Counted from the first letter of the stretch, positions 2,878 through 63,837 are shown. The stretch is DNA of 64,000 bases from a bacterium (GCA_022778545.1 JALFDW010000035.1:3816-67815), one strand, 5' to 3'. A program made the numbers and translations. Notes: a model not told the origin generated them from the letters alone.

Positions 2878-2878
2878 A

Positions 2879-4190: not shown

Positions 4191-4214
4191 GTTTCACCCT
4201 ACTTTCCGGGCGAA

Positions 4215-4817: not shown

Positions 4818-4832
4818 CAGCTGCCTCCCGCA

Positions 4833-5342
4833 TTACGCGAACAGCACGAGGAACACGGAGATGATCAGCGAAAGCAGAGCGTACGTTTCCACCATGAGGG
4901 TGAACATCATCGCGTTACCGAAGCCATCCGGACGCTTTGCCAGCATGTGGATGCCGCTGACCGCGACCTTGGACTGGTGCAGCGCGGAAAGAAGACCGCC
5001 AAACGCGATGGGCAGGCTCGCCGCAAAGTAGGAAAGACCCTTTTCAAGCGTAAGCGCGGAGGTGTCGCCGCCGAGCACGCCGGAGAAGATGAGGATCAGG
5101 ATCGCCACAGCGAAGCCGTAGATGCCCTGGGAACCCGGGAGCAGCTGGAGAACCATGCAGTTACCGAAGCGATCGGGCTGCTCGGCAACAACGCCCGCAG
5201 CCGCCTGGCCGGCTTTTCCGACGCCGATGGCCGAGCCGATGCCCGCGAGGACCGCGGCGAACGCGACGCCAAGCATGGTGAAGATGATGCCCCAATCGTT
5301 CGGGGTAAGGGACGCGAAGATGCTCTGAGATTCGGTTGGCAT
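4833..5342 (-). CDS. ntpK: V-type ATP synthase subunit K (proteolipid)
   Basis: 169 aa, four hydrophobic helices, duplicated GxGxGxAG-type glycine motifs (GSAIGVGKAGQAAAG). Confidence 0.9.
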   Translation of the reverse strand: MPTESQSIFASLTPNDWGIIFTMLGVAFAAVLAGIGSAIGVGKAGQAAAGVVAEQPDRFGNCMVLQLLPGSQGIYGFAVAILILIFSGVLGGDTSALTLEKGLSYFAASLPIAFGGLLSALHQSKVAVSGIHMLAKRPDGFGNAMMFTLMVETYALLSLIISVFLVLFA

Positions 5343-5405
5343 AGTTAAATTCCTCCTGAATTTAATTGTAAATCATTTTGTTATGTGCAGGATCCGGGAT
5401 TCGGA

Positions 5406-7310
5406 TCACTTGTCACGCAGGATCACGTTGCGCGTGTTGAAACGAAGAGGCTTGAATTCATGCCCGTCCGCCTCATAGAACTTGCCGAAGAATTCGATGA
5501 ACTGGAGCCTCGCGCAGTGCGCATAGGCGCCAAGCGTATTGATGAACAGGCTGAACACATGGAGCACAAGGAGAACCGCGCCCGCAAGGATGCAGCCGAG
5601 GATCGCGCCGACGACGCCGAGGCCGCCGAACGCATCGTACACCATGCCGCCGATGAGGTTGAACACCATGCCCATCGCGCCGGAAACGAGGCCGAGTGCA
5701 AAGATACGCACATAGGACAGGATGTCCGAAAGGTAGCCGGTGATGTTATACAACGCGCCAAGGCCGGAGCCGATGCGCATGAAGGGGTTCTTTTTGGAAC
5801 GACCGGAGAACAGCAACAGCATGCCGCCGCCAAGCGCCGTGAGCACGATGGCCACCGTTTTAAGCGCCGGCACTGCGAAGAGCAGGATGAGCCCCGTGAG
5901 CAGCAGGATCCAGGAAAGCTGATCGAAGATCGCGCTTTGCGGATCGCCGTCGCGGAAGCACATGTACATCTTCACGATGATGCCGGTGAACATGTGCACA
6001 AGGCCGAGCCCGCAGCTTAAGAGCATCATGGGCATAACGTCCACCATCGGGTCAAACAGAAGCGGGAAGATGTCCGTGTGGAAGATGTCGTTCCAGGCCA
6101 GGCCGAAGAATGTGCCGATGAACGGGCCGCAGATGAGCGCCGAAAGCCCGCCGAAGGTGATGACCCGCGCAAGCTTTGCCATGCCGCCCTGCGGTTTCAT
6201 GAATTTTGAGAACAGAAGCCCGCCGATGAACAGCGCAAGGCCGTACCCGGAATCGGAAAGCATCATGCCGAAGAACAGGAAATAGAACGGCGCCATCACC
6301 GCCGTTGCGTCCACGCCGCGGTAAGAGGGATAGGCATACATCGTGACGATGGATTCAAACGGTTCGATGAGCTTTTTGTTCTTCATCGCGGAAGGCGGCG
6401 TTTCCTCCTCGAGCGGATCGCGCGTTTCAAAGCTGAACACCTCCGCCGCGCCGGCAACGGCATTCTGCGCCTTCTCTTCTTCATCCGCGCGCACCCAGCC
6501 TTCCAGAATGAAGGCCGCGTTGGTCTTTTCCACGGCAGCCATGGAAAGCGCACGGTCGCGCTCGATCGTCGCGGCATCAAGCCCTTCAAGAAGCAGGCTG
6601 CGCCGTTTTGCAACCGCTTCAAGCGCGGCTACGGTCTCCGCCTCCTGCTCGCGCAGGGAAGCGATCTCCGCCTGGCGTGCGCGGATGTTTTCAAGCGGCG
6701 TACCCGTAATGGCCGGGAAGGTGAATTCCGCAAAGTCCAGCTCCTTGAGCACGCGCTGCATCTCCTCCGCTTCGGAAGCGGAAGCAGCCACAAGCACCGC
6801 AGCTTCCCGCGCGCCGGGGAACGCCTCCACGGCAAAGCCGGCTTCCTCCAGCTGTTCCACTGCGCCAAGGGGCAGGAAGCCCACAGCGTAGCGCACGTTG
6901 CGCGTCGCATGGATCATTTCGATGGGCGCGTCAAACTGCCGCCACGGCAGCAGCGTTTCGATCATGCTCTCGTTTCTGTCGATCTCCGCACGCACGGCGG
7001 CAAGCGCCTTGTCCAGCTCTTCCGTGCGCTCGAGTAGCTCCGCCGCCTCCGGCACGGAAGCGAACAGCTCCTCCGCGCTCATCTCGGGTTTCGGGCCCAT
7101 GGGCGGCTTTTCGCCGTACCGCTTCAGCAGCTGCGCCGCGCTTTCAAGGCGCTGTACCTCCGCAAGGAGATGCTCGTCCACTGCTTTTTCGTCCGTAACG
7201 TCCGCGCGGGAGATCACCTCGACTGTTCCGGCGCGCTGCAGCGCACGCAGGATGGCTTCCTCATCCGCCTTGAGCGCGACAAGGGTGAGCCGTTTCATTG
7301 GTACGATCAT
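5406..7310 (-). CDS. ntpI: V-type ATP synthase subunit I
   Basis: 634 aa; N-terminal soluble coiled-coil half plus multi-TM C-terminal half; lies upstream of K. Confidence 0.9.
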   Translation of the reverse strand: MIVPMKRLTLVALKADEEAILRALQRAGTVEVISRADVTDEKAVDEHLLAEVQRLESAAQLLKRYGEKPPMGPKPEMSAEELFASVPEAAELLERTEELDKALAAVRAEIDRNESMIETLLPWRQFDAPIEMIHATRNVRYAVGFLPLGAVEQLEEAGFAVEAFPGAREAAVLVAASASEAEEMQRVLKELDFAEFTFPAITGTPLENIRARQAEIASLREQEAETVAALEAVAKRRSLLLEGLDAATIERDRALSMAAVEKTNAAFILEGWVRADEEEKAQNAVAGAAEVFSFETRDPLEEETPPSAMKNKKLIEPFESIVTMYAYPSYRGVDATAVMAPFYFLFFGMMLSDSGYGLALFIGGLLFSKFMKPQGGMAKLARVITFGGLSALICGPFIGTFFGLAWNDIFHTDIFPLLFDPMVDVMPMMLLSCGLGLVHMFTGIIVKMYMCFRDGDPQSAIFDQLSWILLLTGLILLFAVPALKTVAIVLTALGGGMLLLFSGRSKKNPFMRIGSGLGALYNITGYLSDILSYVRIFALGLVSGAMGMVFNLIGGMVYDAFGGLGVVGAILGCILAGAVLLVLHVFSLFINTLGAYAHCARLQFIEFFGKFYEADGHEFKPLRFNTRNVILRDK

Positions 7311-7606
7311 TTTGTTACCTCGCTGAGAATATATGCCGCCGCATCCGGAATGCGCGCTCTTGCCGCCTCGCTTGAAGCTTCCGCGGCCGCCTCGCCTTCC
7401 GCGCGGATGCGCTGCATGCGTGCCTCGCCCTCCTGCCGGTCAGCCTCGGCGCCTGCACGCAGCATTTCCCGGGCGTTCTCCCGGGCGGCTGCCACGATTT
7501 CGCCGGCTTCCCGCTCCGCTTCCGCCACCGCCGTGCGCGCGTTTTCCGTCGCCTCCCGCACGATCTTCGCGGCTTCCGCCTCCGTTGCAGCTACCCTTTC
7601 GATCAT
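7307..7606 (-). CDS. ntpF: V-type ATP synthase subunit G/H-like (peripheral stalk)
   Basis: About 100 aa Ala/Glu/Arg coiled coil, first gene of the operon. Start is ambiguous: ATG 7606, or in-frame TTG 7615 lying 9 nt after the RBS GGAGGAGG. The track start at 7639 is a TTG. Confidence 0.65.
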   Translation of the reverse strand: MIERVAATEAEAAKIVREATENARTAVAEAEREAGEIVAAARENAREMLRAGAEADRQEGEARMQRIRAEGEAAAEASSEAARARIPDAAAYILSEVTK

Positions 7607-7746
7607 GGATGCCAAACTGCAACACCTCCTCCCAATCAAATTAGTTAGATTTAATCAGATGCGCATAAAATGCACTTATCCCTCCGCCTGGCGCATGCGT
7701 CATACGATGGGTTTTTCCAAAAAACCAAAAGTCTCCGATTATCAGT

Positions 7747-7776
7747 ATTATATCCTCTTTATCCCAAAAAAGGCAA
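7747..7776 (-). promoter_or_regulatory. Putative sigma-A promoter of the V-ATPase operon
   Basis: Minus strand reads TTGCCT - 18 nt - TATAAT (perfect -10) in the AT-rich gap upstream of ntpF. Confidence 0.45.
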
Positions 7777-7842
7777 GGTTTTATGCCTATTTTTCTGTGT
7801 TTTTATTTTATCGGCTTTGTGAAATAAGTATGCTGTTTGTTC

Positions 7843-7887
7843 AAAAAAAAGCAGGGGGGAAGCCCGAAAAGCTCCTCCCTGCTTTTT
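7843..7887 (-). terminator. Rho-independent terminator after upp (bidirectional shape)
   Basis: GCAGGGGGGA...TCCTCCCTGC stem flanked by A8 on the left and T5 on the right; on the minus strand the hairpin is followed by T8. Confidence 0.75.
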
Positions 7888-7916
7888 ACCGGTTTCTGCA
7901 AACTTATGCAATGGTT

Positions 7917-8546
7917 TTATTTTGTTCCGAACAGGCGGTCGCCCGCATCGCCGAGGCCGGGGACGATATAGCCGTGATCGTTGAGATATTCGTCCACATG
8001 CGCGACATAAATGTCAACGTCCGGGTGCGCCTCCTGAACGGCTTTCACACCCTCCGGCGCCGCGATCAGGCACACGAGCTTCACACGCTTGCAGCCGGCA
8101 CGCTTTACAACGTTGATGCCTTCCACCGCAGAGCCGCCCGTTGCGAGCATCGGGTCAACGACGATGATGTCGCGCTCGCTTACATCCGGCGGGAGCTTGC
8201 TGTAATAGTCCACCGGGTTGAGCGTCTGCGGATCGCGGTAAAGGCCGATATGGCCCACTTTTGCCGCCGGGATGAGGCTCAGCATACCATCCACCATGCC
8301 AAGGCCTGCGCGCAGGATCGGCACGATGCCAAGCTTGCGGCCCGCGAGGGTATAGGTCTTCGCCATGGCGACCGGCGTTTCCACCATGGTCTCCTCAAGC
8401 GGAAGGTCACGCGTCGCTTCGTAGGTCAAAAGCATTGCGATCTCCTCCACAAGCTCCCGGAATTCCTTGGAACCCGTATTCTTGTCCCGCAGATGGGAGA
8501 GCTTGTGCTGCACGAGCGGGTGGTCGATCACCGTCAGTTTACTCAT
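7917..8546 (-). CDS. upp: Uracil phosphoribosyltransferase
   Basis: [24 protein letters not shown]..., 209 aa, PRPP-binding loop [11 protein letters not shown]. Confidence 0.95.
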
Positions 8547-8629
8547 AAAAAACTCCTTTCGTATTTACAGCGCGGAATACACGCCTGGTTTTACAGGATA
8601 AAATATAATAGGAACATAAAAAATGAGGC

Positions 8630-9070
8630 TCACGCCTCATATTTTTCGATCTTGCCAATACGGCCGATATGACGGGTGCCCTTGGAGAACTCCGTCGTGA
8701 GCCAGGTGGAAACGATCGCCTTTGCAAGCTCCGTGCCGACAATGCGGCCGCCGAGCGCCAGCATGTTGGAATCGTTGTGCTCACGGGTGAGGCGCGCCAT
8801 GGTCTCATCCGTACAGAGCGCGCAGCGGATGCCGCGCACCTTGTTTGCGCAGATGGAAACGCCGATACCCGTGCCGCATACGACGATGCCGCGCGCAAAC
8901 CGGCCGTCCGCCACAGCCTCCGCAACGGGGAAAGCGATATCCGGATAATCCACGCTCTTTTCATCCGGGCAGCCGAAATCCGTCACCTCAAAGCCGAGCT
9001 TTTCAATGACGGGGATCAATTCCATTTTGAGCGCATAGCCGCCGTGATCCGAGCCGATCGCGATCTTCAT
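8630..9070 (-). CDS. rpiB: Ribose-5-phosphate isomerase B
   Basis: MKIAIGSDHGGYALK..., CGTGIG motif, 146 aa. Confidence 0.95.
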   Translation of the reverse strand: MKIAIGSDHGGYALKMELIPVIEKLGFEVTDFGCPDEKSVDYPDIAFPVAEAVADGRFARGIVVCGTGIGVSICANKVRGIRCALCTDETMARLTREHNDSNMLALGGRIVGTELAKAIVSTWLTTEFSKGTRHIGRIGKIEKYEA

Positions 9071-9095
9071 TCTGTTTCTCCTTTTCCGTTCCGGT

Positions 9096-10136
9096 TCATT
9101 CCGAGATCATATGGAACCCGGCCGCCCGCAGCAGGCGGTTCATGTAGGCAAGCCCCTCCCCCTGCTCCGGCAGCGCCTCGGCAAGGATGGTGTCCACATC
9201 GTCCGAATGCGCGCGCAGCTGCGCAAAGAGGTTCGCGCAGAGGGTCGCCGGTTGTTTCCTGTCGCCTATTATAACACATTGTCGGCCGCTGTAAAGCGCC
9301 CGCGTCTGCTCCGTGGCGAAAATAATGCAGCGTTCGCCCCGCTCCGTGCGCGCGTCATATTCCCGGGCAATGCGGGCGGCGGCCTGCTTTGGCGCGCCCT
9401 CTGCCACGAGCACCTCCGCATCCGGCGCGTAATGGCGGTATTTCATGCCGGGAGAAGCCGCAGTCTCCCCCTCCTTGAGCGGGGCCAGGATGGATGGCGC
9501 AAGCGCGACCGCGCCGATCACCGCCTCAAGCATCTCCTTTGTGACCGCACCCGGGCGCAGGATGGTGGGTTCGCCCACGAGCGAAAGCACCGTGGATTCC
9601 ACGCCGAAGCGGCACGGGCCACCGTCGATGATAAGGTCGATCTTTCCCTCCATATCCTGCCGCACATGCTCCGCCGTGGTGGGGCTCGGCTTGCCGGAGG
9701 TGTTTGCGCTCGGTGCCGCCACGGGCACACCGGCTGCGCGGATGAGCGCGAGCGCCGTTTTGTTGTCCGGCATGCGGACGGCGACGGTCTCGAGCCCTGC
9801 CGTGACCTCATCCGGCACGGCGGAGGAACGGTTGAAGATGAGCGTGAGCGGCCCCGGCCAGAACGCATCCATCAGCGTGCGCGCGGCATCCGGGATACGC
9901 GTCCAAAGCTGTTTCACATCGTTTTTCTTCGCGACATGCAGGATGAGCGGGTTGTCCCCCGGCCTGCCCTTGGCTTCAAAGATGCGGCGGACAGCCGCGC
10001 CGTCAAGCCCGTTCGCACCGAGGCCGTAAACGGTCTCCGTGGGGAAAGCTACAAGGCCCCCCGCCCGCAGGATGCTCCCGCCAAGGCGCGTGCCGTTTTC
10101 CTTTTGCGTTACTGCGTTTGCAAATTGCGTCTGCAT
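9096..10136 (-). CDS. tsaC: L-threonylcarbamoyladenylate synthase (Sua5/YwlC long form)
   Basis: FPTETVYGLGA motif plus a Sua5 C-terminal domain. Trimmed to ATG 10136 (MQTQFANAV...). Confidence 0.9.
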   Translation of the reverse strand: MQTQFANAVTQKENGTRLGGSILRAGGLVAFPTETVYGLGANGLDGAAVRRIFEAKGRPGDNPLILHVAKKNDVKQLWTRIPDAARTLMDAFWPGPLTLIFNRSSAVPDEVTAGLETVAVRMPDNKTALALIRAAGVPVAAPSANTSGKPSPTTAEHVRQDMEGKIDLIIDGGPCRFGVESTVLSLVGEPTILRPGAVTKEMLEAVIGAVALAPSILAPLKEGETAASPGMKYRHYAPDAEVLVAEGAPKQAAARIAREYDARTERGERCIIFATEQTRALYSGRQCVIIGDRKQPATLCANLFAQLRAHSDDVDTILAEALPEQGEGLAYMNRLLRAAGFHMISE

Positions 10137-10194
10137 GGTTTCCCTTCTTTCCTTCATTCCCATTCACAGCAATTGCTTTTTAAGAACCGACAAC

Positions 10195-10229
10195 TGTCCA
10201 TTGTCAATTGTCCATTGTCCATTATCGAT
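10195..10229. repeat. Five tandem heptamers TGTCCAT TGTCAAT TGTCCAT TGTCCAT TATCGAT
   Basis: Read directly in the 65-nt prfA-tsaC spacer. On the mRNA (minus) strand this is 3 x AUGGACA plus AUUGACA. Confidence 0.8.
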
Positions 10230-11302
10230 TACGAACCGCTTTCCCCCGAAAGCTGCGCCGTGCGCTCGGCGAGGATCAGCGCGTCGATCAGCTCATCCAT
10301 GTCGCCGTCCATAAACGCTTCAAGCTTATAAAGCGTAAGGCCGATGCGGTGATCGGTCACGCGGTTCTGCGGGAAGTTATAGGTGCGGATACGCTCGCTG
10401 CGGTCGCCTGAGCCCACCTGGCTCCTGCGGTTCGTGGCCTCGGCCTCCGCCGCCTCGTTCTGGTAAAGCTCGAGCAGGCGGCTTTTCAGCACGCGCATCG
10501 CCTTGTCCTTGTTTTTATGCTGGCTGCGCTCATCCTGACACTGCACTACAAGCCCCGTGGGCAGGTGCGTGATGCGGATAGCGCTTTCCGTCTTGTTCAC
10601 ATGCTGTCCGCCCGCGCCGCCGCTGCGGTAAGTGTCGATCTGAAGGTCGTTCGGGTTGATCTCCACCTCCACGTCATCCGCCTCCGGCAGAACGGCGACC
10701 GTTGCCGCGCTCGTGTGGATGCGCCCCTGCGATTCCGTTTCCGGCACACGCTGCACCCGGTGTACGCCGCTTTCAAACTTCATGCGCGAATACGCCCCGC
10801 GCCCGGAAAGCGAGAGTACGACCTCCTTCACGCCACCCATCTCCGTCATGTTCTCGCTCAGGAACTCAGCCTTGAAGCCGTGGCGTTCCGCATAGCGCTG
10901 ATACATTCTGAGAAGGTCTGCGCCGAAGAGCGCCGCCTCATCCCCGCCCGTGCCTGCGCGGATCTCGATGATAACGTTGCGTTCGTCGTTCGGGTCGCGC
11001 GGGAGCAGCATGAATTTCAGCTCCTCCGTGAGCTTCTCCTGCGCTTCCTCGAGTCCGGCAAGCTCCGCGTGGATCAGCTCGCGCATCTCCGCGTCGTGCT
11101 GCTCGGAGAGCATCGCGCGGCAATCCGCAAGCTCCTGCACGATGGCGGTATAGCGGTCATATGCCGCAACGATCTCCGAAAGCTGCGCGTGTTCCCGCGC
11201 AAGTTCCCGATATCGTTTCTGGTCGTTCATCGTTTCCGGCTGTGCCAGCAGCGTAGAAAGCTCCTCGTACCGGTTTTTCAGGCTTTTGAGCTTATTGAGC
11301 AT
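10229..11302 (-). CDS. prfA: Peptide chain release factor 1
   Basis: GGQ motif ([22 protein letters not shown]) and a PxT-type tripeptide (VPETES). Confidence 0.95.
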
Positions 11303-12626
11303 ATTCGCCGCTCCATTCGATCAGATTTGCTTGTTCCGTCCCCACAATGTCCATAACATGCTCGAAGCATGCATCCATTTTCCTGAGCGCACTCTCATCC
11401 GGCGGCATGGCCGTAATCGACAGCGCCGCGTCCCCATAGCAGGGCACGGTCTGATGCAGTGTCCTGCCATCCTCGAGCTTCTGTTTGAGACAAAGCACGG
11501 GCAGGTATTCCACCGCCGTGCAGGATACCGCGCCATTCGCGCCGCGCAGAAGGCAAAGGCGCGCGAACATGCCGTATTCCGTGTCCGGCTTGGACATGTT
11601 GGAAAGGAAGTTTCCCAACGAATAAACGATGGGCGCGCGCACGGTTTTCCCGTCCCGCTCCGTTTCGATCCATTCGATGGGCTGCACTACATGCGGGTGC
11701 GAGCCGATGACCGCATCCGCCCCGGCATCCACGAGCCATTGCGCCGTCTTTTCCTGGCGGCTGCTCTCCACAGCCTCAAACTCGCTGCCCCAGTGCACAA
11801 ACGCTATTATAAACTCCGCGCCCGCTTCCCTGCAAGATACGATCTCGCGTTGGAGCGCTTCCTCCCGGGAAAGGCGCGAAACGGCAAAGCTCCGGCTTTC
11901 CGAAGGGATCAGCCCGTCGTTGCTGTTCACGCTCTCTGTCGCACAGACGATGCCGATGTGGATGCCGTTTGCCGTAAGGATGCGCGGCGTAAAGCGATCC
12001 TCCTCGGAAAGATAGCAGCCGCCCTGCAAAAGCCCCGCCGCGCGCAGCGTTTCCGCCGTGCGGAGCAGACCCGCATAGCCCCGGTCCAGGCAGTGGTTGT
12101 TCGCCGTGGATGCGAAGTCCACCCCCGCCTCCACAAGGTCCTGCGCCAGCGCATCCGGCGCGTTGAAGGCCTGGAAGGGCTGCTTGGGCGTCGGGTCGGC
12201 CTCCGTGGCCGGCGGCGCAGTCGGCCGGGGCTCGGAATAGCCCGCTTCCGCGCCCGCCATCGCGCCCTCAAAGTTGACCGCGACAACATCCGTTTCCGCA
12301 AAGATGCGTTCCATGGGCGCAAAGCTGCCGGAAAAATCGTAGCTGCCATCCGCCTGTTTTGCGTTCTGCACCTGCGTCTGCATGATGAGGATATCCCCCG
12401 CAAAACCGATCAGCGCCGCCTGCGGCGTCGGCTCCGGCGTGGGCGTCAGGTCCGGCGTAGGTTTCTCCGTAGGAGAAGGCGTCTGCTCCGGCGCGGCGGA
12501 AGCCGCAGGCAAAAGCTCCTCCACAGGCGCGGGCGTAACCGTAACCGGAACAACCGCTTCGGCAGCACACCCTGCAAGCACCAGAGCGGCGCACAGCAGG
12601 AAGAACACGGCTGATTTTTTCAGCAT
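11292..12626 (-). CDS. CapA/PGA_cap-family metallophosphatase-like lipoprotein
   Basis: Trimmed to ATG 12626 ([20 protein letters not shown], lipobox). Pro/Thr-rich linker, then a CapA-like core ([14 protein letters not shown]). Overlaps the prmC stop and the prfA start. Confidence 0.7.
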
Positions 12627-17774: not shown

Positions 17775-18104
17775 ATGATGAAAATCAGCATTGCAGATTA
17801 TGAAGATTACCTATATGACCATTATAAGAGCCATGGTATTGATACCAGTTTGTTTATGAAATTAGTTGAAGAAGTAGGTGAAGTTGCAGATGTTCTAAAT
17901 AAACGGGACGGAAGGAAGGCTTCTGATAACGAAGATTTGAAATCTCAATTAGCAAATGAATTGGCGGATGTTATTCATTACGCCTTTGCGATTGCATCAT
18001 TAAACCAAATCAACTTGAATGATGTTATTATCGAGAAAGATAAAAGAACTTCAATAAAATATCATCACGAAAGAAACCTTGAGCAGTTTATGTCAGAACG
18101 ATAA
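17775..18104 (+). CDS. MazG-like nucleotide pyrophosphohydrolase domain protein
   Basis: EEVGEVADVL and ELADVIHY helices typical of the all-alpha NTP-PPase fold; 109 aa. About 32% G+C in a line I counted. The second ATG (17778) has better RBS spacing. Confidence 0.75.
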   Translation: MMKISIADYEDYLYDHYKSHGIDTSLFMKLVEEVGEVADVLNKRDGRKASDNEDLKSQLANELADVIHYAFAIASLNQINLNDVIIEKDKRTSIKYHHERNLEQFMSER

Positions 18105-18178
18105 ATTCCAATTTGTCGAACTGATAAAGGGCTCACTTCTATACACCTTTCGGTGTACTGTGCGATCTGCGATTTTGC

Positions 18179-18242
18179 GCAGCGCCAAAGCCTCCCTTGT
18201 GTAAAGGGAGGTGGCACGGCGTAAGCCGTGACGGAGGGATTG
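18179..18242. repeat. Left terminal inverted repeat of the DUF559 cassette (two hairpins + RBS)
   Basis: GCAGCGCC..CCTCCCTTgtgtaAAGGGAGG..CACGGCgtaaGCCGTG..GAGGGATTG; matches the reverse complement of 18590..18648. Confidence 0.85.
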
Positions 18243-18244
18243 TC

Positions 18245-18613
18245 ATGCAGCCAAAGCACAATAAGCAGTTGGTTCCTTTGGCAAAACAGCTGCGAAAAGA
18301 AATGACCAGGGAAGAATGGCACCTATGGTATGATTTTCTGCGTTCCTACCCGGTCCGTTTTTCCAGGCAAAAGGTGCTGAGAAAATATATCGCTGATTTC
18401 TATAGCGCAGAAGCAAAACTCGTCATTGAGCTGGACGGTTCTCAGCACTATGAGGATGGAAACGTCAAAAAAGATGCAGACCGCACCGCTTTTCTTGAGG
18501 GGTATGGTCTGAGAGTCATTCGTATCCCCAACAACGAAGTCGGCAGAAATTTCCGTGGAGTTTGTGCGTATATCGATGCTGCGGTAAAGCAATCCCTCAG
18601 TCAGCTTCGCTGA
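18245..18613 (+). CDS. DUF559 (Vsr-like) endonuclease domain protein
   Basis: Trimmed to ATG 18245 (MQPKHNKQL...). Motifs YIADFYSAEAKLVIELDGSQH and GYGLRVIRIPNNEV are typical of DUF559. Confidence 0.85.
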   Translation: MQPKHNKQLVPLAKQLRKEMTREEWHLWYDFLRSYPVRFSRQKVLRKYIADFYSAEAKLVIELDGSQHYEDGNVKKDADRTAFLEGYGLRVIRIPNNEVGRNFRGVCAYIDAAVKQSLSQLR

Positions 18614-57137: not shown

Positions 57138-58421
57138 ATGATAAAGCGCAGGAGCCTTCCCATCCTGCTTGCAGCGCTGTTCCTCCTCTCTGCCGGCTGC
57201 GACAGTCCTTCTGGCGCGCCCGCTGCGCAGACGCCCGGCACGGCGGACAAGCCCGGCACAGAACTCCCTGCCACGCAAACGCCCGGTGAAACGCCGGCGT
57301 CTTCGGATGCGCTCTTTTATGCGGATCGGACGAACACTATATATTTCCCGGAAGGCACGGGCGATGCGGATGCAGAATACGTCCTGACTTACAGGCTGCC
57401 CGTGTTCATGCCGGAAGAGCTCAACTGTGCGGCGCTCAACGCAGCGCTTTCACTCTATGAGGAGGAACTGACCGAGCGCGTGCGCACGGAACGCCTTCCG
57501 CTTGCCGACCGCGTTGCGGGGGAAGCAGCGCCCTCCACGAGCGTGGATTTTGAAGCCTCCTTCGCAGGCGGTTATTGGAACATTCTCCTGTTTGAGACCG
57601 TATCATACGGTGCCGAAAGCGAAACGCTCCCGTTTGCCCTTGTGCTGGATGGAAGCGGAAACGAGCAGAGTTTTGCCGCAGTATCCGGGCAATACGAGCC
57701 GGAGCCACTCGTGGCACAGCAGGTGTACAACGCCATCGACCAGAATCCGGATGCTTACTTCGGCGACATCACGCCGGAGGATGTGCGCCTTGTGCTTGAC
57801 CTCATGAACGGTTTCGCAGTTACGGATGCAGGGTATGAGATTTTCATCCGCTCCGGCGCGCTTGCTCCCGCAGAGGCCGGCATCCTCACGTTTTCCATTC
57901 CACGCGCGGCACTCTACCCGGATTGCGTTGGGGAATCGCTTTCCATCGCGGAATATGAAACACTCCTTCCCGCATTCCATGCAATCGCCGCAGCCTGCGC
58001 GCCGAATTATGAAGGCTTTACGGACGGTTCTCCCTCCGCTTATACCGCAAGCGCATTCCTGACGCAAATGCTCACCACCGGCAGCGAGGATGCGCTCTGG
58101 AAGGATATCCCGGAAGACGCGTACAAAGCATCCTTTGCGGATTATTTCACCGGCATTTTCCCGGCAGATCTCACAGAATGGGGCGACGGAACGCTCCTGC
58201 AAGACGGCGCATACCGTGTTCCGGTGCGCCCGCGTGCCGCTTATGCCCTGCGCGTGGATGAAGCCGTACGCACGGAGAAAACGCTTGTAATTTACGGCAT
58301 GCTTCTCTATGGCATTCCCGGCACCGAGGAGGCCGGTGAACTCGCCGCGCTCGTGCTCACGCTCACCATAGATGCAGCTGCGCCGCTCGGGTTCCGCTTC
58401 CTTTCAGCAGAGCTTGCCTGA
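57138..58421 (+). CDS. Lipoprotein of unknown function
   Basis: MIKRRSLPILLAALFLLSAGC lipobox, Pro/Thr-rich linker, 427 aa. Possible DUF3298/RsiV-like fold (not verified). Confidence 0.6.
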   Translation: MIKRRSLPILLAALFLLSAGCDSPSGAPAAQTPGTADKPGTELPATQTPGETPASSDALFYADRTNTIYFPEGTGDADAEYVLTYRLPVFMPEELNCAALNAALSLYEEELTERVRTERLPLADRVAGEAAPSTSVDFEASFAGGYWNILLFETVSYGAESETLPFALVLDGSGNEQSFAAVSGQYEPEPLVAQQVYNAIDQNPDAYFGDITPEDVRLVLDLMNGFAVTDAGYEIFIRSGALAPAEAGILTFSIPRAALYPDCVGESLSIAEYETLLPAFHAIAAACAPNYEGFTDGSPSAYTASAFLTQMLTTGSEDALWKDIPEDAYKASFADYFTGIFPADLTEWGDGTLLQDGAYRVPVRPRAAYALRVDEAVRTEKTLVIYGMLLYGIPGTEEAGELAALVLTLTIDAAAPLGFRFLSAELA

Positions 58422-58445
58422 GGCTCCACACCCGCAGAGTTATCA

Positions 58446-58484
58446 CAAAAAACAGCCGCGCGGCGGGAAACCCGCCGCGCGATT
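58446..58484 (-). terminator. Hairpin terminator, copy 1 of a duplicated 36-39-bp element
   Basis: CAAAAAACAGCCGCGCGGCGGGAAACCCGCCGCGCGATT; 10-bp GC stem; on the minus strand it is followed by CTGTTTTTTG. Confidence 0.75.
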
Positions 58485-58495
58485 CGCTTCTGCGT

Positions 58496-58981
58496 TTATT
58501 CCACATAATCCGGAGAAATGACCTGGATGGGAAAGGAGCATTGCATTCCGTTTGGGCCTGATAGCACGACATTATAAATTCCCGCTTTCGTAAAATCAAG
58601 TTCAGGCAAAAAGAATGCATATTCAAATTCATCTTTCGGTGCATATCTCTCCATATCGCACACTGACTCGCACGAATCGTCCTCATCGTTCCACTCACAT
58701 GAGAATCCATGCAGATCCTTTGGGTCAACACTAAAACATATCTTTCCACCCGACAAATCGAGCTCGGTATCCTTTCCAATAACATAAACCAATTGATTGG
58801 GATACGCATGCACATGCATATGCTGATAATGTTGAGCGTCTATCCCTTTCGTAGAAAGCATATCCTGTGAGAAGTTCCAACAGCCTCGCACTCCAAAGAG
58901 AACCGCTATTAAAAGTAAAATAGAATTCTCGACTATGAGCAATACAAATAACCAGTTTTTAGGTTTTCTCACTTTTTCCAT
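58496..58981 (-). CDS. Membrane-anchored protein with Ig-like (Big_3-like) ectodomain, AT-rich
   Basis: RBS AAGGAGGAAAGAG; TM WLFVLLIVENSILLLIAVLFGV; YPNQLVYVIGKDTELDLSGGKI pattern. Confidence 0.6.
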   Translation of the reverse strand: MEKVRKPKNWLFVLLIVENSILLLIAVLFGVRGCWNFSQDMLSTKGIDAQHYQHMHVHAYPNQLVYVIGKDTELDLSGGKICFSVDPKDLHGFSCEWNDEDDSCESVCDMERYAPKDEFEYAFFLPELDFTKAGIYNVVLSGPNGMQCSFPIQVISPDYVE

Positions 58982-58999
58982 CTCTTTCCTCCTTTGCTC

Positions 59000-59293
59000 T
59001 CAAGATAGATCGCCTGTACCATAGGCGCGTGCATTCACCGTTTCGAAATTTCTTCCATTTGCAGCAGCATCATGCTGTTGAATCTTAGGCCAATAAACCT
59101 TCAGCCACTGTGGATAATCATTCCAGTCCACGCCCTGAGAAATCAAATAATTTGAATACAACACAGCAACGTCCCGAATAAGCCCCGACAGAATAAGCGG
59201 ATCAGCTTTATCCCTGTTTAAAGCATACATGCTGCCATCCTGCGTCGTCAACCAGATTTTTCCAAACGCACCACCGCACAACGCCTGCCCCAC
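59000..59293 (-). CDS. Small hypothetical protein, or orphan 3' gene fragment
   Basis: The track start is a GTG 4 nt after the terminator T-run. The only ATG is at 59230 (MYALNRDK..., 76 aa). The reading frame stays open upstream through the hairpin. No recognisable family. Confidence 0.35.
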   Translation of the reverse strand: MGQALCGGAFGKIWLTTQDGSMYALNRDKADPLILSGLIRDVAVLYSNYLISQGVDWNDYPQWLKVYWPKIQQHDAAANGRNFETVNARAYGTGDLS

Positions 59294-59297
59294 GCCG

Positions 59298-59335
59298 TCA
59301 AAACAGCCGCGCGGCAGGAAACCCGCCGCGCGATT
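59298..59335 (-). terminator. Hairpin terminator, copy 2 of the duplicated element
   Basis: TCAAAACAGCCGCGCGGCAGGAAACCCGCCGCGCGATT. Relative to copy 1 it has one substitution (G to A, weakening the stem) and one fewer A. Confidence 0.7.
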
Positions 59336-59337
59336 TG

Positions 59338-59694
59338 TTATTGTTTCGTTTTCTCTCCCTGCTCCCCGGCAGGCGTTTCGCCTTCTTTCGGCGCTTCCGG
59401 CTCCGCATTTTCCTCCTGCGGTTCGATCGGCGTTCCATCCGGGTTGCGGATGCGGTTTCCACGGTCATCATATAGGCAGGGCTTTGCCTTGTCTCCCATG
59501 ATGCGTTTGTATAGCCTTGTTTCCCGGTAGTAGCCGTAGGACAAGTAAACAATAAGCAGGATAAAACTCACAAAGCCTGCTAAATACAATCCACCCCATT
59601 CTCCGAATGCATCCTCTGCCATGTCCCAGAAAAAGGAGAGAGCACCGGGAAAATACAAGCTAACATGCATAACTTCCGATTCCTCCTGCATCAT
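59338..59694 (-). CDS. Single-TM small protein translationally coupled to the 579-aa ORF
   Basis: ATGA overlap at 59691-59694. Alternative ATG 59670 follows AGGAGG. TM GGLYLAGFVSFILLIVYLSYGYY; acidic Pro/Glu-rich C-terminal tail. Confidence 0.6.
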   Translation of the reverse strand: MMQEESEVMHVSLYFPGALSFFWDMAEDAFGEWGGLYLAGFVSFILLIVYLSYGYYRETRLYKRIMGDKAKPCLYDDRGNRIRNPDGTPIEPQEENAEPEAPKEGETPAGEQGEKTKQ

Positions 59695-61430
59695 TGTTCA
59701 TCCGACATCAGATACTTCTTGCCAGCAGCAACAATAAGTTCAGGCATCCATTCATTAATCAAAACTTTTACCAGTTCCCTGATAGGCTGCTCTGCACTCA
59801 TAATTTTAGGAATCATCTCTGGCAGCGAAAGCACACTTTTTAACAGTCCCGTCACATTCCCTGTTCCTTTAAACCATTTCGGATTTGCTTTCTTGACTGC
59901 TTCAGTTGAACTGAAATATGCATACTGCCTGTGATAATCGTCATAGCCCGACGCAAACACTGAGAAGTCCAAATCCTGCGTGTCCATCAGCAATTCATTC
60001 ATAACCGCCGGGCCTGTCGTTGCTTCGGGTATTTTACACATAAGTGCACCGCGTACTTGCGCCGCCCATGTTCTTACCTGAAAGTCATCACTTTCGCTGA
60101 CAATTCTGCTCAGAACGTGCACGCTTTCCTTAATTTGCTTCACTTCCGTCTGATTCGTAATCGCACGTAAGCTCAGTAAATCTGCACATGGTATGGCAAA
60201 TGGATTTGTCAACGTTTCCTCCGTCAATAGAATCGGAATCGCTGCATATTCTTTCCATGCTGATTGTACCATTTCATCCGAATATCGTCCAGTATTTGCA
60301 ATTGATAAATATCTTTCCAATTTTTCATTCGCAATTGGTAACAATGGATCATATGAAGGGCCGTCACATTGTTTCACAGTACTTTCCCACTCTTTTTCTT
60401 GCTTCTCCAATATATCAACAGCATATTGAATATGTTCCTTTGTTGTGTGTTCGACAGATGGCGGCAGTGCATTTCGGGAAATTTCCATTGCACCAGCACG
60501 GTTTTTTCTTGGGTCATTTGTTTTACTCCCGTCTTTTTTTAGTATCTCCGCTCTCTGTTGCAATGTAATTTCAGCAGCCATTTTTTCCGCCGCTTTCATA
60601 CAATCAAAGCTTCCCCATGCTTTTACGGTATCGCGTGCAATTAGCCTGTCTCGATGTCCTTCCAACGCTGGAAGGACATGATGCATCCATTTTTGTCTCT
60701 GTATTGCCTCTTCACGCGTCGCTATATTATCCCGTCTTGAAAGGATTCTTCCGTCCTCAGCCGTATATGCCTTTACAAGTTCAATTGCCGTCTGTGTTTC
60801 CTCCAGCGTAAACCTGCGGAATGGTGCAAGCCGGCCACCTGCTTCCCGCAGTTCCATATCTCTCTCTTTTTCAAGCCGGTCGATTTTTGCATGCAGTTCT
60901 TCAATGCGTCGCCGGGTATATTGAATATACTGTGCATCATATTTTCCATCCGCTGCTAAGTCCGGCATTACCTTTACTCTCTTGAAAAACTTGGTTTCCG
61001 GATCATACACATTCGTATATATTGGACCAAGTTCCTGATACGCTTTATAGCTGATCCCATTCTCAATTACATCGTTAACAATTTCGTTGATCTCTTGCTG
61101 GTTCTTTAGTATTTCATTTTCATAAAACTCTCCTATTCTCTTTTTCTCCGCAGTCTGTGCGTCCATTAGGTCAGTTATATATTCTACAGTAATTCTCGGT
61201 GTGCCAGCCATTTTCCCCGCATTTTTTGGTATTATATCTGTCTCTGCGCGCATGCCGATCATCCCCTGCTGCATGTCTCTCCCGGCGCGTACCTCCTGCC
61301 GTGCCTGCTGCAAAAGCTGCGCGCGCCTTTCCGGAAGCGCCCATGGTGCAAGGTTCGTCCCCACGTCCGTTTCCCGCTGCATGCCGTAAGCCTCCGCTTT
61401 TCTTCCTTTCGCTGCGTTGATCGCCTCCAT
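59691..61430 (-). CDS. Chimeric 579-aa protein of unknown function (high-GC N-terminus, low-GC body)
   Basis: RBS AGGAGGA 7 nt upstream of ATG 61430. Long uninterrupted ORF, helix-rich, no TM; I recognise no motif. Confidence 0.7.
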   Translation of the reverse strand: MEAINAAKGRKAEAYGMQRETDVGTNLAPWALPERRAQLLQQARQEVRAGRDMQQGMIGMRAETDIIPKNAGKMAGTPRITVEYITDLMDAQTAEKKRIGEFYENEILKNQQEINEIVNDVIENGISYKAYQELGPIYTNVYDPETKFFKRVKVMPDLAADGKYDAQYIQYTRRRIEELHAKIDRLEKERDMELREAGGRLAPFRRFTLEETQTAIELVKAYTAEDGRILSRRDNIATREEAIQRQKWMHHVLPALEGHRDRLIARDTVKAWGSFDCMKAAEKMAAEITLQQRAEILKKDGSKTNDPRKNRAGAMEISRNALPPSVEHTTKEHIQYAVDILEKQEKEWESTVKQCDGPSYDPLLPIANEKLERYLSIANTGRYSDEMVQSAWKEYAAIPILLTEETLTNPFAIPCADLLSLRAITNQTEVKQIKESVHVLSRIVSESDDFQVRTWAAQVRGALMCKIPEATTGPAVMNELLMDTQDLDFSVFASGYDDYHRQYAYFSSTEAVKKANPKWFKGTGNVTGLLKSVLSLPEMIPKIMSAEQPIRELVKVLINEWMPELIVAAGKKYLMSDEQ

Positions 61431-61466
61431 AAGCCTGTCCTCCTGTTCCTCGTTGCGCTGCGAGGC

Positions 61467-61919
61467 CTATATCCGCCTGATCTCCGCCACAGCGTCCGCT
61501 TCCTCCTGCGCAAGCCGCGCGCGGAATGCCCGCTCCGTTTCCGGCCCCCACACGCCATCTTCCCTGATCCCAAGCGCTCCCTGCATCGACCGCACGCTCG
61601 TGTTCGTTTGGATGAAGGCCGGCGCATTGATCCCTGGCGTCATAATTTCGTTTATGTGATGCGTTTCCATATTCTGCCAGCGCTTTACCGCCGCAAGGTG
61701 CTCCTGTGCCTTTTCTGCCCCAGGCACCGCGGCGTTCATCCACGCGTCGCTCTCAATGCGCATGCCTTTCTGCTGCTCCTGTTCCCATCTCGCGTTGCGC
61801 TTGCGGGCCTCCGTTTCCGCGTTCGCATATGCGGGGGGCTGTACGCCCCCGCTCCATCCCTGCGGCTGCTTCCGCAGCGTCCCCACGTCCGTCATCTGCC
61901 TGTAATCCGTCATTGCCAT
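61467..61919 (-). CDS. Phage-region protein with C-terminal peptidoglycan-binding-like motif
   Basis: RBS AAGGAGGA. VRSMQGALGIREDGVWGPETERAF resembles the PG_binding_1 repeat. Confidence 0.55.
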   Translation of the reverse strand: MAMTDYRQMTDVGTLRKQPQGWSGGVQPPAYANAETEARKRNARWEQEQQKGMRIESDAWMNAAVPGAEKAQEHLAAVKRWQNMETHHINEIMTPGINAPAFIQTNTSVRSMQGALGIREDGVWGPETERAFRARLAQEEADAVAEIRRI

Positions 61920-61969: not shown

Positions 61970-62176
61970 TCAGACAAGGAACTCCTTCGGCACGCCCTCG
62001 AGCACCACGCGAACCGCTCCTCCGTCAAGAGCCTCCGCTTTTCGGCCGTATTCCACAAGCGCCTTTGCGGCGGAGATCCTGTCCGCCGCTTTCTGCCCTT
62101 CATCCCGGCAGATGGCAAGCAGGCATTCAAATCCGGCCTCAGCACCCTGCTTTGCTATGCGTTCCAGCTTTTTCAT
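61970..62176 (-). CDS. Small phage protein (68 aa), coupled to portal
   Basis: ATGA overlap with the portal stop; RBS GGAGGTGA; helical, DRISAAKALVEYG motif. Confidence 0.5.
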   Translation of the reverse strand: MKKLERIAKQGAEAGFECLLAICRDEGQKAADRISAAKALVEYGRKAEALDGGAVRVVLEGVPKEFLV

Positions 62177-63798
62177 ACGTTCACCTCCGCGCCCTGCCCG
62201 TAAGCCGCGGGGCTCGAGAGCGCTATGCCGTCCTGCTCCGCCGCCGGCTGCTGTGCCCGCGCACGCATCATGGCCTGCGCCTCACGTTTTCCATCGAACA
62301 GCATCAGTTCAAGGCCGATGTCCGGCGTGACCATGCCCATCTGCACCAGCTTGAGCACAAGCTCGTTGTGTGCCGCCACCGTGAAGCGGTTCTCCCGCTG
62401 TGCGCGCACGCTCACCGTGAACTCCAGCGGCAGGCGGTTGTTCCGTGCCGTCAGCTCAAACATATCCTCCCCCGTGAAGGCGGCATGCTCCGCTTTCCCG
62501 CCCGCAGCGTTCTGCAGGGCCACCTTGCGCGGGAAGATGCAGAACTCGCGCTCCACCTCGATCTCCTGCCGCACGGCTTCCTCAAACGCACCGTGCACCG
62601 TGCGCGCCACCATGCGGCTTCGCTTGCTGCCCGCCTCCTGCAGCGCGGCAATCGCGGAAGCCGCCGTAACGCCGCCATAAGTCTGCCCGCGCACAAAATC
62701 GTTGCTGCCGGATTCCTCCCGGATGCTCTGGCGAATGCCTTGGCTGTAATTGAGGATATAGCCCGGCAGCGGCGCAGTCGGGAACCAGGTCACGCCGTTC
62801 AGGTTTTCCCCGCGGTGCACCTCCTTGGACCAATCCCTGAGGTCGTCCGGATCAAAGCCGGAAGCGCCCGTCACAAGGAGCTTGTTGTGCGAAGCCATCA
62901 GCGCGTTTTTCAGGATGATCTGATCGAGCTTGTCCGCATAGCGCTGCTGCGTCTCAAACATATCCACAAACCCGTAGCCGAGTGCAGTGCCCTTGCGCGC
63001 AAATAGCGGCGTCACAACGAACGGATACTGCCCGTGCACAAAATAGCCCTCCGGCTTTTCCACCCGGCTGTCCTCAAGCAGCTGCCGCCCCGCGAGCTTG
63101 CACATGTGCACGCGGAAGCGCCCGGCTTCGGGATCGTATTCCCGCTGCCAGCATTCGATGAGAAGGAGCGTATCCCCATTGCCCCGGGAAAGATAATTGT
63201 CCTCCATGCGCAGCACACGGTTCATGTCCTCGCGCATATCGGCAGCCTGCTTCGGATAGCGCGCCTCAAACCATGCCCGCGGATACGGCGCAAACTTGAA
63301 TATGGCGCGGGAATCCTGAATGTCCGTGCAGAGCGGGTCGAACATGATGTTGTGCGCGTCCACCGCCCGCAGGAACGCCGCGCCGAAGCCGCCCATCGCC
63401 TCCGCATCAAAGCCCGTTTCCTGCACCATGTAGCCGCCCACGAGCAGGTCGTGCAGCAGCCGGGCATATTCCCTGTCGAACCGGCCCAGCCGATGGTTTT
63501 CGCGCAGCACCGCCGTCAGCATTTCCGCCACGCGCTCATGCCCCGGCGCATCCGCAAGGACGATCGCTTCCGGCATCTGATCCATCAGGTCAGCGCGGAC
63601 GTTTTCAATGGTGGACTGGATCACAGGCGTCATGGGGCGCGGTTCGTTTTCATCCTGCACCGGCACATCCTGCCAGTGCTCCCCGCGGTAAACGCGCTCG
63701 CAGCGGTCAAGCCGCTCCCATTCTGCGGCATATGCGCTGCGGTACTCGTTGAAAAGGGTATAAAGCTGTTCCACATTCTCGTTCTGTTTTGCGTTCAT
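62173..63798 (-). CDS. Phage portal protein
   Basis: Trimmed to ATG 63798 (the track start is a TTG inside the RBS GGAGGAAAA). About 540 aa, directly downstream of the terminase. N-terminal ...YRGEHWQD... and overall acidic profile are typical of SPP1-type portals; called from context and by eye. Confidence 0.7.
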   Translation of the reverse strand: MNAKQNENVEQLYTLFNEYRSAYAAEWERLDRCERVYRGEHWQDVPVQDENEPRPMTPVIQSTIENVRADLMDQMPEAIVLADAPGHERVAEMLTAVLRENHRLGRFDREYARLLHDLLVGGYMVQETGFDAEAMGGFGAAFLRAVDAHNIMFDPLCTDIQDSRAIFKFAPYPRAWFEARYPKQAADMREDMNRVLRMEDNYLSRGNGDTLLLIECWQREYDPEAGRFRVHMCKLAGRQLLEDSRVEKPEGYFVHGQYPFVVTPLFARKGTALGYGFVDMFETQQRYADKLDQIILKNALMASHNKLLVTGASGFDPDDLRDWSKEVHRGENLNGVTWFPTAPLPGYILNYSQGIRQSIREESGSNDFVRGQTYGGVTAASAIAALQEAGSKRSRMVARTVHGAFEEAVRQEIEVEREFCIFPRKVALQNAAGGKAEHAAFTGEDMFELTARNNRLPLEFTVSVRAQRENRFTVAAHNELVLKLVQMGMVTPDIGLELMLFDGKREAQAMMRARAQQPAAEQDGIALSSPAAYGQGAEVNV

Positions 63799-63837
63799 TT
63801 CATTTTCCTCCAATTGAATTATGATCTTTCGTTTGTT

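Follow-up and report, generated by a model that had tools for sequence, protein, structure and literature searches.

A candidate polymorphic toxin/immunity locus with exchangeable C-terminal cassettes behind an orphan terL-portal remnant

Introduction

Why should a run of low-GC genes, ending directly against host genes, stand behind a phage portal gene that has no capsid genes beside it? The question is raised by positions 58,445-61,919 of a 64,000-nucleotide stretch of bacterial DNA (GCA_022778545.1 JALFDW010000035.1:3816-67815), here called the window, whose minus strand carries, in this order, portal, o68, o150, o579, o118, o97 and o161 (open reading frames, ORFs, named by their length in residues) and then host genes directly. 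An earlier note on this DNA read o579 as a conserved N-terminal plug joined to a swapped C-terminus with a cognate membrane partner, and saw in it either a MuF-type head protein carried as capsid cargo or a prophage-borne defence module. That interpretation was right in kind and wrong in particulars. From comparison with related loci, we consider it fairly probable that the region is a polymorphic toxin/immunity-type locus evolving by C-terminal cassette displacement. The parts of this reading differ in strength: our confidence in a polymorphic-cassette architecture, as judged from sequence, is high and in a toxin/immunity function moderate, while confidence in a functional link of the cassettes to the portal is low, such a link seeming improbable to us.

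Comparison of related loci

A portal search found 17 loci in Clostridia metagenome-assembled genomes (portal 51-89% identical), and the comparison set used here consists of 8 related loci from about 5 species of uncultured Clostridia. In L003-L006, L023, L025 and L026 (portal 76-89%), a terS-like helix-turn-helix (HTH) gene, terL, portal and o68 are followed by one long ORF and by arrays of small genes. The long ORF (451-623 aa) joins an N-terminus homologous to o150 and a variable, low-GC C-terminal part in a single reading frame. In five of these loci (L003, L005, L006, L023 and L026) it ends in a domain with the motif E...HSHP...SxGD, here called JAB-type, and in L004 and L025 the C-terminus is of a third, unrelated type.

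In three independent strain pairs, near-identity gives way abruptly to non-homology inside the ORF. Counted from o68, the DNA of L003 and L023 is 98-100% identical over about 600 nt, beyond which identity drops to about 50%. L004 and L026 fall from 96-100% to 35-47%, the break lying right after '...EELRR', the position of a TAG stop codon in the window. The window and L002 are 98-100% identical over about 1500 nt of o579 and then 46-56% identical over the last ~200 nt and the o118-like gene. A displaced copy of the main gene's middle portion is present in L003 (221 nt, 95%) and in L023. Downstream of the main gene lie orphan cassettes, one in the window (o97 with o161) and whole arrays in L003, L005, L006 and L023; the orphans are 5'-truncated C-terminal fragments of varied length, and behind each of them come an intact partner gene and a GC-rich hairpin. 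Both cassette types keep fixed pairings of C-terminus and partner in all loci.

The comparison shows a conserved N-module joined to exchangeable low-GC bodies, each C-terminal type with its own membrane protein, and it is the sharp junctions, the co-varying downstream gene and the orphan cassettes with immunity-like genes that lead us to read the architecture as that of polymorphic toxins. The earlier note had named this comparison as a check, and tblastn, ORF maps and identity profiles agree that the N-terminus is conserved while the C-terminus and the downstream ORF vary as a unit. Its architecture of plug, swapped C-terminus and membrane partner stands; its choice of the conserved part does not.

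Base composition counts for the same exchange reading, as the cassettes look foreign beside the portal. The abrupt fall in GC after about 75 codons of o579, described earlier, is confirmed: codons 1-75 have a GC of 0.59 and a GC at third codon positions (GC3) of 0.65, against 0.43 and 0.38 for codons 76-579. GC3 is 0.56 in o118, 0.46 in o97 and 0.41 in o161, compared with 0.78 in the portal gene, 0.76 in o150 and 0.64-0.79 in host genes. It drops to 0.36-0.46 between about 58,450 and 61,205, and GC is back to about 0.6 at 58,400. The window's lowest 1.5-kb GC, 0.429 at 59,751, lies 3.8 standard deviations (SD) under the mean (0.589, SD 0.042).

The o118 protein and the tip of o579

One exchange involves the end of o579 and the gene behind it. 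The o579 stop and the o118 start overlap in ATGA at 59691-59694, and AGGAGG stands 8 nt before the o579 ATG; the ORFs, this strong ribosome-binding site (RBS), the overlap, the single transmembrane (TM) segment of the 118-residue protein and the 97- and 161-residue ORFs were all as the earlier note had placed them. The TM segment of o118 spans residues 34-52, with a predicted N-out, C-in orientation. An o118-like gene always lies 3' of an o579-type C-terminus (window, L002, L003 and, twice, L023), and in L022 an analogous 119-aa TM ORF follows such a C-terminus. Orphan pieces of the o579 C-terminus (residues 464-574, 477-560 and 382-494), each followed by an o118-like gene, lie at the distal ends of the L003 and L023 arrays.

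Between the window and L002, o579 residues 521-579 are 32-38% identical and the o118 homologs 47%. Within the o118 family the N-terminal part (the ectodomain) and the TM segment are variable and the cytoplasmic tail (GYYRETxLYKRIMGDKAKPCLYD...) is nearly invariant. This pattern fits a specificity determinant combined with a recombination arm: the invariant tail would provide the downstream homology arm, and specificity would be placed at the membrane. Coupled to o579 in translation, as the overlap suggests, o118 is a candidate cognate immunity or partner protein.

The displaced cassette o97-o161

Behind o118, two 36-nt hairpins that are 97% identical, T1 and T2, bracket o97 and o161. The expressed unit would end at T1, where an orphan cassette begins, and T2 marks the outer edge of the island. 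The window's hairpin sequence was not found in the other loci, which have analogous hairpins of other sequence. An integron-like reading of the hairpins as attC sites was dropped because the cassettes do not begin with complete promoterless ORFs; they begin with gene fragments, and the hairpins are canonical terminators made of a stem and a T run.

The product of o97 aligns to the last ~95 residues of the long-ORF C-termini in L003, L005 and L006, from just past E...HSHP...SxGD. With its start directly behind T1 and just past the position of SxGD, o97 is the 5'-truncated, catalytically dead orphan of a Tox-JAB-2/DUF4329-like domain. It has none of the catalytic positions E, H[ST]H, S and D and no match to DUF4329. 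DUF4329 (PF14220) is the recurrent Pfam match of the full JAB-type C-termini, sub-threshold in 6 of 8 full copies (best 5e-4), the copies scoring 14-20 bits against a cut-off of 28.6; a JAB profile gave no match among PDB sequences. The C-termini carry exactly the signature listed for Tox-JAB-2 (= DUF4329), a polymorphic-toxin domain with E, HSH, S and D (Zhang et al., 2012; PMC3482391). In L003, L005, L006, L023 and L026 these residues stand in the same order, E...H[ST]H...S..D. The locus differs from Tox-JAB-2 in that the partner is a TM-anchored Ig-like protein and not Imm-NTF2-2, and o97 corresponds to the 3' part of the domain.

That partner, o161, has a TM segment at residues 11-29 and is predicted by the positive-inside rule to lie N-in, C-out. 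Its family profile matches the immunoglobulin (Ig)-like D3/D4 domains of Listeria InlK (4l3a) at E 3.8e-9. An o161-like gene follows every JAB-type C-terminus, with 1-8 paralogs per locus in L003, L005, L006, L023 and L026. From related loci, 18 such ORFs of 128-177 aa could be extracted intact, and they share a conserved family profile. There are more partner genes than toxin fragments; in L005, tblastn gives 8 o161-like matches against 3 of JAB type, one of the 3 being the main gene's own C-terminus. The intact orphan partner of o97, o161 is a candidate for the immunity role in the JAB-type cassette; a promoter-like sequence is found within o97 (59251-59222).

The front end

In the relatives the conserved module and the variable body form one protein. 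In the window they are divided by the TAG that ends o150, which is in frame with the o579 ATG and 13 codons from it; homology of o150 to the relatives stops at '...EIRRI*'. The in-frame TAG and the new RBS and ATG behind it suggest that in this strain front end and effector are separate polypeptides. Recoding of the TAG was considered and rejected, since TAG terminates other window ORFs and is an ordinary stop in this genome. The earlier note missed this codon, along with the paired terminators and the fact that no capsid or tail gene follows. It had taken the first 75 codons of o579 for the conserved module; they have no homolog in the relatives (tblastn with residues 1-85 matched the L001 and L002 alleles only), and the conserved part is o150 instead. 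Nor is o579 directly behind the portal, as the earlier description implied: o68 and o150 intervene. Homologs of o68, 72-84% identical, occupy the same position in L003-L006, L023, L025 and L026, and none turned up among the portal lineage's viral contigs.

The 5' ends of o579 and o150 share an exact repeat of 15 nt (61356-61370 and 61878-61892), which encodes TDVGT; their wider similarity is weak (BLASTP E 0.044). The repeat could be the trace of a duplicated gene start that was used when the o579 body was installed, which might account for the host-like GC of codons 1-75; the evidence for this is weak.

The conserved module resembles PG_binding_1 (PF01471, cut-off 23 bits), the name referring to peptidoglycan (PG). 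It scores 20.0 bits in o150, 19.8 in L003 and 23.9 in L004, which passes, and a further protein, P0014, has a precomputed PF01471 annotation. Against the PG-binding virion-module proteins of related phages, hhalign gives a probability of 97% and E 8e-11 over 46 columns. Because of this profile-profile match to a phage PG_binding_1-like domain, the front end probably derives from a virion-module protein of this phage lineage. PHROG matches of o150 to endolysin are weak, and its AlphaFold2 (AF2) model (predicted local distance difference test, pLDDT, 52) is too poor for a fold check. In a word-indexed homolog search o150 itself gave no match and the N-domain profile gave two fragments; the profile also gave further loci from metagenomes, and a scan of viral contigs with it returned generic PG_binding matches only. 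No N-terminal domain tied to secretion (signal peptide, LXG/WXG, RHS or MuF) was matched in Pfam or NCBIfam, and there is no hydrophobic N-terminus.

Linkers with the repeated short motifs Y[ND]RTxxTAD and TADGxRTNVxG occur in the long proteins of L005 (10209-12080) and L006 (11857-13695). A similar 'TRNTNRTYKVNG' stretch occurs in a phage PG-binding protein (L039 10468-11478).

The o579 body

The body of o579 was described earlier as helix-rich, without TM segment or known family, and hydropathy, structure prediction and family scans bear this out. It has no TM segment (maximum 19-residue Kyte-Doolittle value, KD19, 1.0) and is predicted to be almost wholly helical. The AF2 model, from a 10-sequence alignment, is all-helical with a mean pLDDT of 62 and confident only at residues 90-200 and 330-470 (82-95 for the latter). 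No match was found in Pfam, PHROG, NCBIfam or PADLOC, and no catalytic domain is recognisable. The same four scans were uninformative for o118, o97, o161, o150 and o68 as well, apart from the weak PG_binding_1 match. A Foldseek search with the structure, another check the earlier note had named, gave no match at E<0.02 in PDB or BFVD, with low TM-scores. Tblastn against 50,697 phage genomes gave no match either; neither this search nor Foldseek against BFVD turned up a full-length phage homolog of uniform composition, which the earlier note had named as evidence against an exchanged C-terminus.

Close homologs form one cluster (92% identity) in an index of 5.8 billion proteins. More distant relatives number 11 among 1.84 billion representatives, all aligning over residues ~298-579 and sharing the motif IPILLTEETLxNPYAxxYAxLLSxR (core ~60021-60278). 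We therefore regard the o579 effector as a member of a very rare helical family; as this family has no known activity, toxicity is only a presumption.

Two relatives help to define the context. One, P0011 (L021 10001-11452), combines a PG_binding-like N-terminus with the IPILLTE module and is a stand-alone low-GC gene (0.45 against 0.58 for its locus) between the PEPCK and ThiT genes, with no portal or phage gene nearby. The other, P0010, is followed by a 119-aa TM ORF. From P0011, which stands alone among housekeeping genes, and also from P0010, linkage of the cassettes to a portal appears to be lineage-specific.

The terL-portal remnant

The region is the edge of a phage remnant and neither the interior of a prophage nor a complete one, since it borders directly on host genes and contains no capsid or tail gene. 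The remnant consists of a terS-like gene, terL (beyond the window end) and portal. Both terL and portal are intact everywhere, with dN/dS, the ratio of nonsynonymous to synonymous rates, of 0.07-0.17 at dS 0.6-3.4 (0.08-0.17 for portal). The window has no gene for scaffold, major capsid protein (MCP) or tail, nor do L003-L007, L010-L013 and L018 have one within ±10 kb; terL-portal is kept without capsid or tail genes within that distance in at least 10 Clostridia genomes. Upstream of terL-portal, L015, L017 and L019 have a compact, permuted cluster of structural genes about 12 kb long, which includes an MCP gene in L017 and L019. As regards the criterion for a gene transfer agent (GTA), then, MCP and scaffold are lacking within ±10 kb in 10 related loci and present in that cluster. 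The L019 cluster (1913-11596) holds a 201-aa ORF at the scaffold position, an MCP and proteins of 491 and 262 aa, subsets of which occur in L017 and L015, and as a whole the permuted cluster looks like a small operon of GTA type.

Synteny of the downstream host flank (lipoprotein, CARDB protein, yigZ and tyrS) extends over the window, L005 and L007. The L007 portal is 62% identical to that of the window and its host genes 42-74%, and no cassette lies between portal and lipoprotein there. The window's portal is at most 32% identical to portals in deposited phage genomes. A rough neighbour-joining tree, which has no support values, groups the genome-derived portals in a single clade with the viral contigs as its sister. 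IMG/VR contains contigs of 35-39 kb with portals 44-58% identical to the window's. Their order is terS, terL, portal, acidic scaffold-like protein, MCP (PHROG 1357) and a pair of small proteins, then a virion structural protein (PHROG 3287), one of ~65 aa and one or two proteins with a PG_binding_1-like domain at the N-terminus. In complete phages of the lineage the PG-binding proteins lie about 5 kb downstream of the post-portal slot, and they are not polymorphic. The intact terL and portal, the low dN/dS, the syntenic flank and the single portal clade suggest a domesticated or GTA-like packaging pair.

Other branches show further contents in the slot behind the portal (L010 11838-13484, L012 11952-14548, L018 13036-15278, L013 11647-13685 and L011 10627-14076): different low-GC cargo, for example small membrane proteins, sets of 2-3 paralogous lipoproteins (MKKRxxFPRF...SGC), an M10-like lipoprotein or an LTD/CotH protein of 1149 aa. 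The slot appears to be a general cargo hotspot. The ~190-aa 'terS-like' protein has a C-terminal HTH motif like sigma-70 region 4, and its gene is divergent from terL in L007 (7709-8242, minus strand) and L038 (2178-2705, minus strand); it may be a regulator rather than a small terminase. L020, L037 and L038 are IMG/VR contigs of 4-6 kb catalogued as viral, but in the tree their portals fall among the genome-derived remnant ones. At least L020 is more probably a chromosomal remnant than a virus, because a homolog of the host gene lipo427 directly follows its portal.

Layout of the locus

The features are listed in Table 1. The element ends at about 58,445, with host genes directly beyond: a DUF3298-like lipoprotein, a class-A beta-lactamase-like gene, a CARDB surface protein, yigZ and tyrS. 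Elsewhere in the window a single other patch, at ~17-19 kb, has a GC below 0.5. At 17775-18613 (GC 0.47-0.49) it holds a 109-aa ORF that looks MazG-like by eye (EVGEVAD...ELADVIHY) and a 138-aa ORF that, likewise by eye, is DUF559/Vsr-like, and it may be a small islet. The 64 kb contain no tRNA genes and no Rfam family at the gathering threshold, a T-box leader upstream of tyrS (52381) included.

Table 1. Features of the locus, in window positions; the cassette genes and portal are all on the minus strand.
Feature	Position	Strand	Remarks
portal (546 aa)	62173..63813	-	Pfam P22_portal 5e-21; PHROG 156 7e-50
o68	61970..62176	-	small conserved ORF; start overlaps portal stop
o150, conserved N-terminal module	61467..61919	-	PG_binding_1-like; ends in TAG 61467-61469
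o579 (579 aa)	59691..61430	-	own RBS and ATG
o579 codons 1-75	61206..61430	-	host-like GC
o579 low-GC helical body, codons 76-579	59694..61205	-	defined by composition
o579 variable C-terminal tip, ~residues 509-579	59694..59906	-	exchanged jointly with o118
o118 (118 aa)	59338..59694	-	single-pass membrane protein
T1, intrinsic terminator	59300..59335	-	copy of the 36-nt hairpin repeat; 12-bp stem and T run
o97 (97 aa)	59000..59293	-	putative truncated Tox-JAB-2/DUF4329-like remnant
o161 (161 aa)	58496..58981	-	predicted membrane-anchored Ig-like protein
T2, intrinsic terminator	58449..58484	-	second 36-nt hairpin copy; outer island edge
lipo427, host gene	57138-58421		syntenic in L005, L007 and L020

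Comparison with known systems

Rhs, CdiA-CT and MafB arrays are marked by a sharp junction, displaced truncated C-termini with intact immunity genes, more immunity than toxin genes, and foreign GC. The locus is like them in its sharp junction, its displaced C-terminal fragments and intact immunity-like genes downstream, the excess of these genes over toxin fragments, and its foreign GC. It differs in lacking RHS or filamentous haemagglutinin repeats, a VENN or PxxxxDPxGL-type motif, a signal peptide and any marker of type V, VI or VII secretion systems, in its Gram-positive Clostridia host, and in the GC-rich terminator hairpins between its cassettes.

MuF toxins share other traits with the locus: a phage-derived N-module, exchangeable C-terminal domains, small candidate immunity ORFs behind them, and a packaging neighbourhood of terminase and portal, prophage remnants included (Zhang et al., 2012, PMC3482391; Jamet et al., 2017, PMC5576092). 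The locus falls within the looser category of Jamet et al., a remnant near portal or terminase. However, its N-module is PG_binding_1-like without a MuF1 or MuF2 domain, and o68 stands directly behind the portal; no match to MuF1 (PF04233) or MuF2 (PF06152) was found with Pfam at E<=0.1 in o150, o579 or the L003-L006 long ORFs. Further differences are that the remnant has no capsid genes, that the candidate immunity proteins are membrane proteins with extracytoplasmic parts, and that there are long orphan arrays; Jamet et al. (2017) nowhere use the word 'orphan' in their text.

For the remnant itself the nearest parallel is the split podovirus-like GTAs of gut Ruminococcaceae/Oscillospiraceae (Faecalibacterium GTA I/II; bioRxiv 10.1101/2024.11.15.623857). 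In both, selection keeps a podovirus-type terL and portal in the chromosome, with no replication genes and with other structural genes possibly elsewhere. In Faecalibacterium GTA I, however, scaffold and MCP follow portal in the same operon, which is not so in the remnant described here.

Proposed mechanism and alternatives

By the comparison, the locus changes in the following way. Recombination at the conserved junctions brings in new cassettes, and an incoming cassette displaces the earlier C-terminus and its partner to a place downstream, behind a terminator. There the displaced toxin fragment decays, as o97 has done, while the partner gene is kept intact, as with o161. The operon would be read through from portal to T1, and o161 could be expressed from the promoter-like site inside o97. 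The C-terminal domains would be antibacterial effectors acting at the cell envelope, as suggested by the PG-binding front end, by the predicted position of the o161 Ig domain outside the membrane and by the confinement of o118 variability to its outer segment and TM, and the membrane proteins would be their cognate immunity proteins. The effector and front-end modules have not been described before, and on this account the system is a new variant of polymorphic toxin systems, placed on an orphan terL-portal remnant.

Several points weigh against this account. First, the only named toxin domain, DUF4329, is matched below the Pfam gathering threshold, and the window has only its dead fragment; o579 is without a recognisable catalytic domain, and its toxicity is a presumption. 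Second, no signal peptide or known trafficking domain was found, and so no delivery route is identified. Third, all examples come from the one narrow clade of uncultured Clostridia (8 loci, ~5 species), so that linkage to the portal is essentially one evolutionary event. Fourth, distant members of the o579 family can still be aligned, if weakly, in their C-terminal region, which makes these C-termini divergent and not swapped for unrelated folds, and the ORF behind P0011 (100 aa) is not a TM protein. Finally, the in-frame TAG may mean that the window copy is disabled.

The alternative that survives best, though we think it unlikely, is a non-toxic polymorphic surface or recognition system serving kin discrimination or adhesion, in which a wall-bound tip meets a variable membrane protein as in Ids-type pairs. 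Co-variation of the o579 tip with the o118 ectodomain and TM would suit such a system, as would the missing catalytic motif in o579, the PG-binding front end and the Ig-like ectodomain of o161. Yet alternative cassettes at the same locus carry the JAB metal-site signature classed as a toxin domain, decaying toxin fragments beside intact partner genes point to protection instead of recognition, and there is no signal peptide for surface display.

A little less likely still is the capsid-cargo idea of the earlier note, in a MuF-like form: the protein would bind the portal, be packaged in a phage or GTA-like head and be injected, and terS-like gene, terL and portal would be retained for that purpose. 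The gene does stand two ORFs behind the portal in the same orientation in 8 of 8 loci, strong purifying selection acts on a terL and portal that have no capsid genes near them, and the N-module resembles a virion-module protein of related phages. Precedents exist in MuF toxins and the 'phage-derived secretory mechanism' for prophage remnants (PMC3482391; PMC5576092) and in the split-locus GTAs of gut Clostridia (bioRxiv 10.1101/2024.11.15.623857). The MuF domain was not detected with Pfam, however, and with no capsid or tail genes at the locus there is no capsid-cargo machinery in cis; scaffold, MCP and tail are likewise missing from ±10 kb in the 10 related loci. In complete phages of the lineage scaffold and MCP occupy the slot behind the portal, and the PG-binding proteins are not polymorphic. 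P0011 occurs alone, without portal, and the portal linkage comes from one clade. The variable and Ig parts of the partner proteins lie outside the membrane, which would better suit an envelope-acting than an injected protein.

We know of no demonstration as yet of a phage-derived secretory mechanism, although one was proposed by Zhang et al. (2012; PMC3482391). In this locus it would make the capsid-less operon of terS-like gene, terL, portal and o68 a domesticated machine for exporting or loading polymorphic effectors, either as a portal-terminase translocase alone or within a split GTA for protein toxins, of which it would be the packaging half. We hold both forms to be quite improbable. If there were such a machine, the variable low-GC envelope genes behind the portal in L010, L012, L013 and L018 would be alternative cargo.

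Just as doubtful is that the locus is decaying prophage debris, that is, leftover virion-associated PG-binding or lysis genes and small holin-like membrane proteins that duplication has rearranged and that have no present function. The in-frame stop between o150 and o579, the truncated and frameshifted fragments, the position at the edge of a phage remnant and the weak endolysin matches of o150 could all be taken that way. Debris would not be expected, however, to keep long ORFs (451-623 aa) intact across about 5 species whose neighbouring genes have reached a dS of 0.6-1.3, or 18 intact o161-like ORFs with a conserved family profile, or strong RBSs and translational coupling; and near-identical alleles with sharply swapped tips point to recent recombination followed by retention.

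Anti-phage defence or superinfection exclusion, also raised by the earlier note, with membrane proteins that block phage entry and o579 as an abortive-infection effector, is very unlikely, since a moron-like position at a prophage edge, small membrane proteins and foreign composition are set against 0 PADLOC families for 7 of 7 ORFs at E<=0.1, the lack of any nuclease, NTPase or sensor domain, and a combination of conserved N-terminus, swapped C-terminus and orphan fragments that is not a known defence-system architecture.

Implications

If the cassettes are toxins, the polymorphic toxin/immunity-type locus described here would represent a new branch of polymorphic toxin systems in strictly anaerobic gut and rumen Clostridia. 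What would be new is a front end taken from a PG-binding protein of the phage virion module, a rare family of helical effectors, and membrane-embedded candidate immunity proteins, which would point to a target in the envelope. The window and L002, which differ only in the last ~70 residues of o579 and in o118, form a natural allele pair for the mapping of specificity. The terL-portal pair, with no capsid genes in cis, offers a tractable case for the role of domesticated packaging genes.

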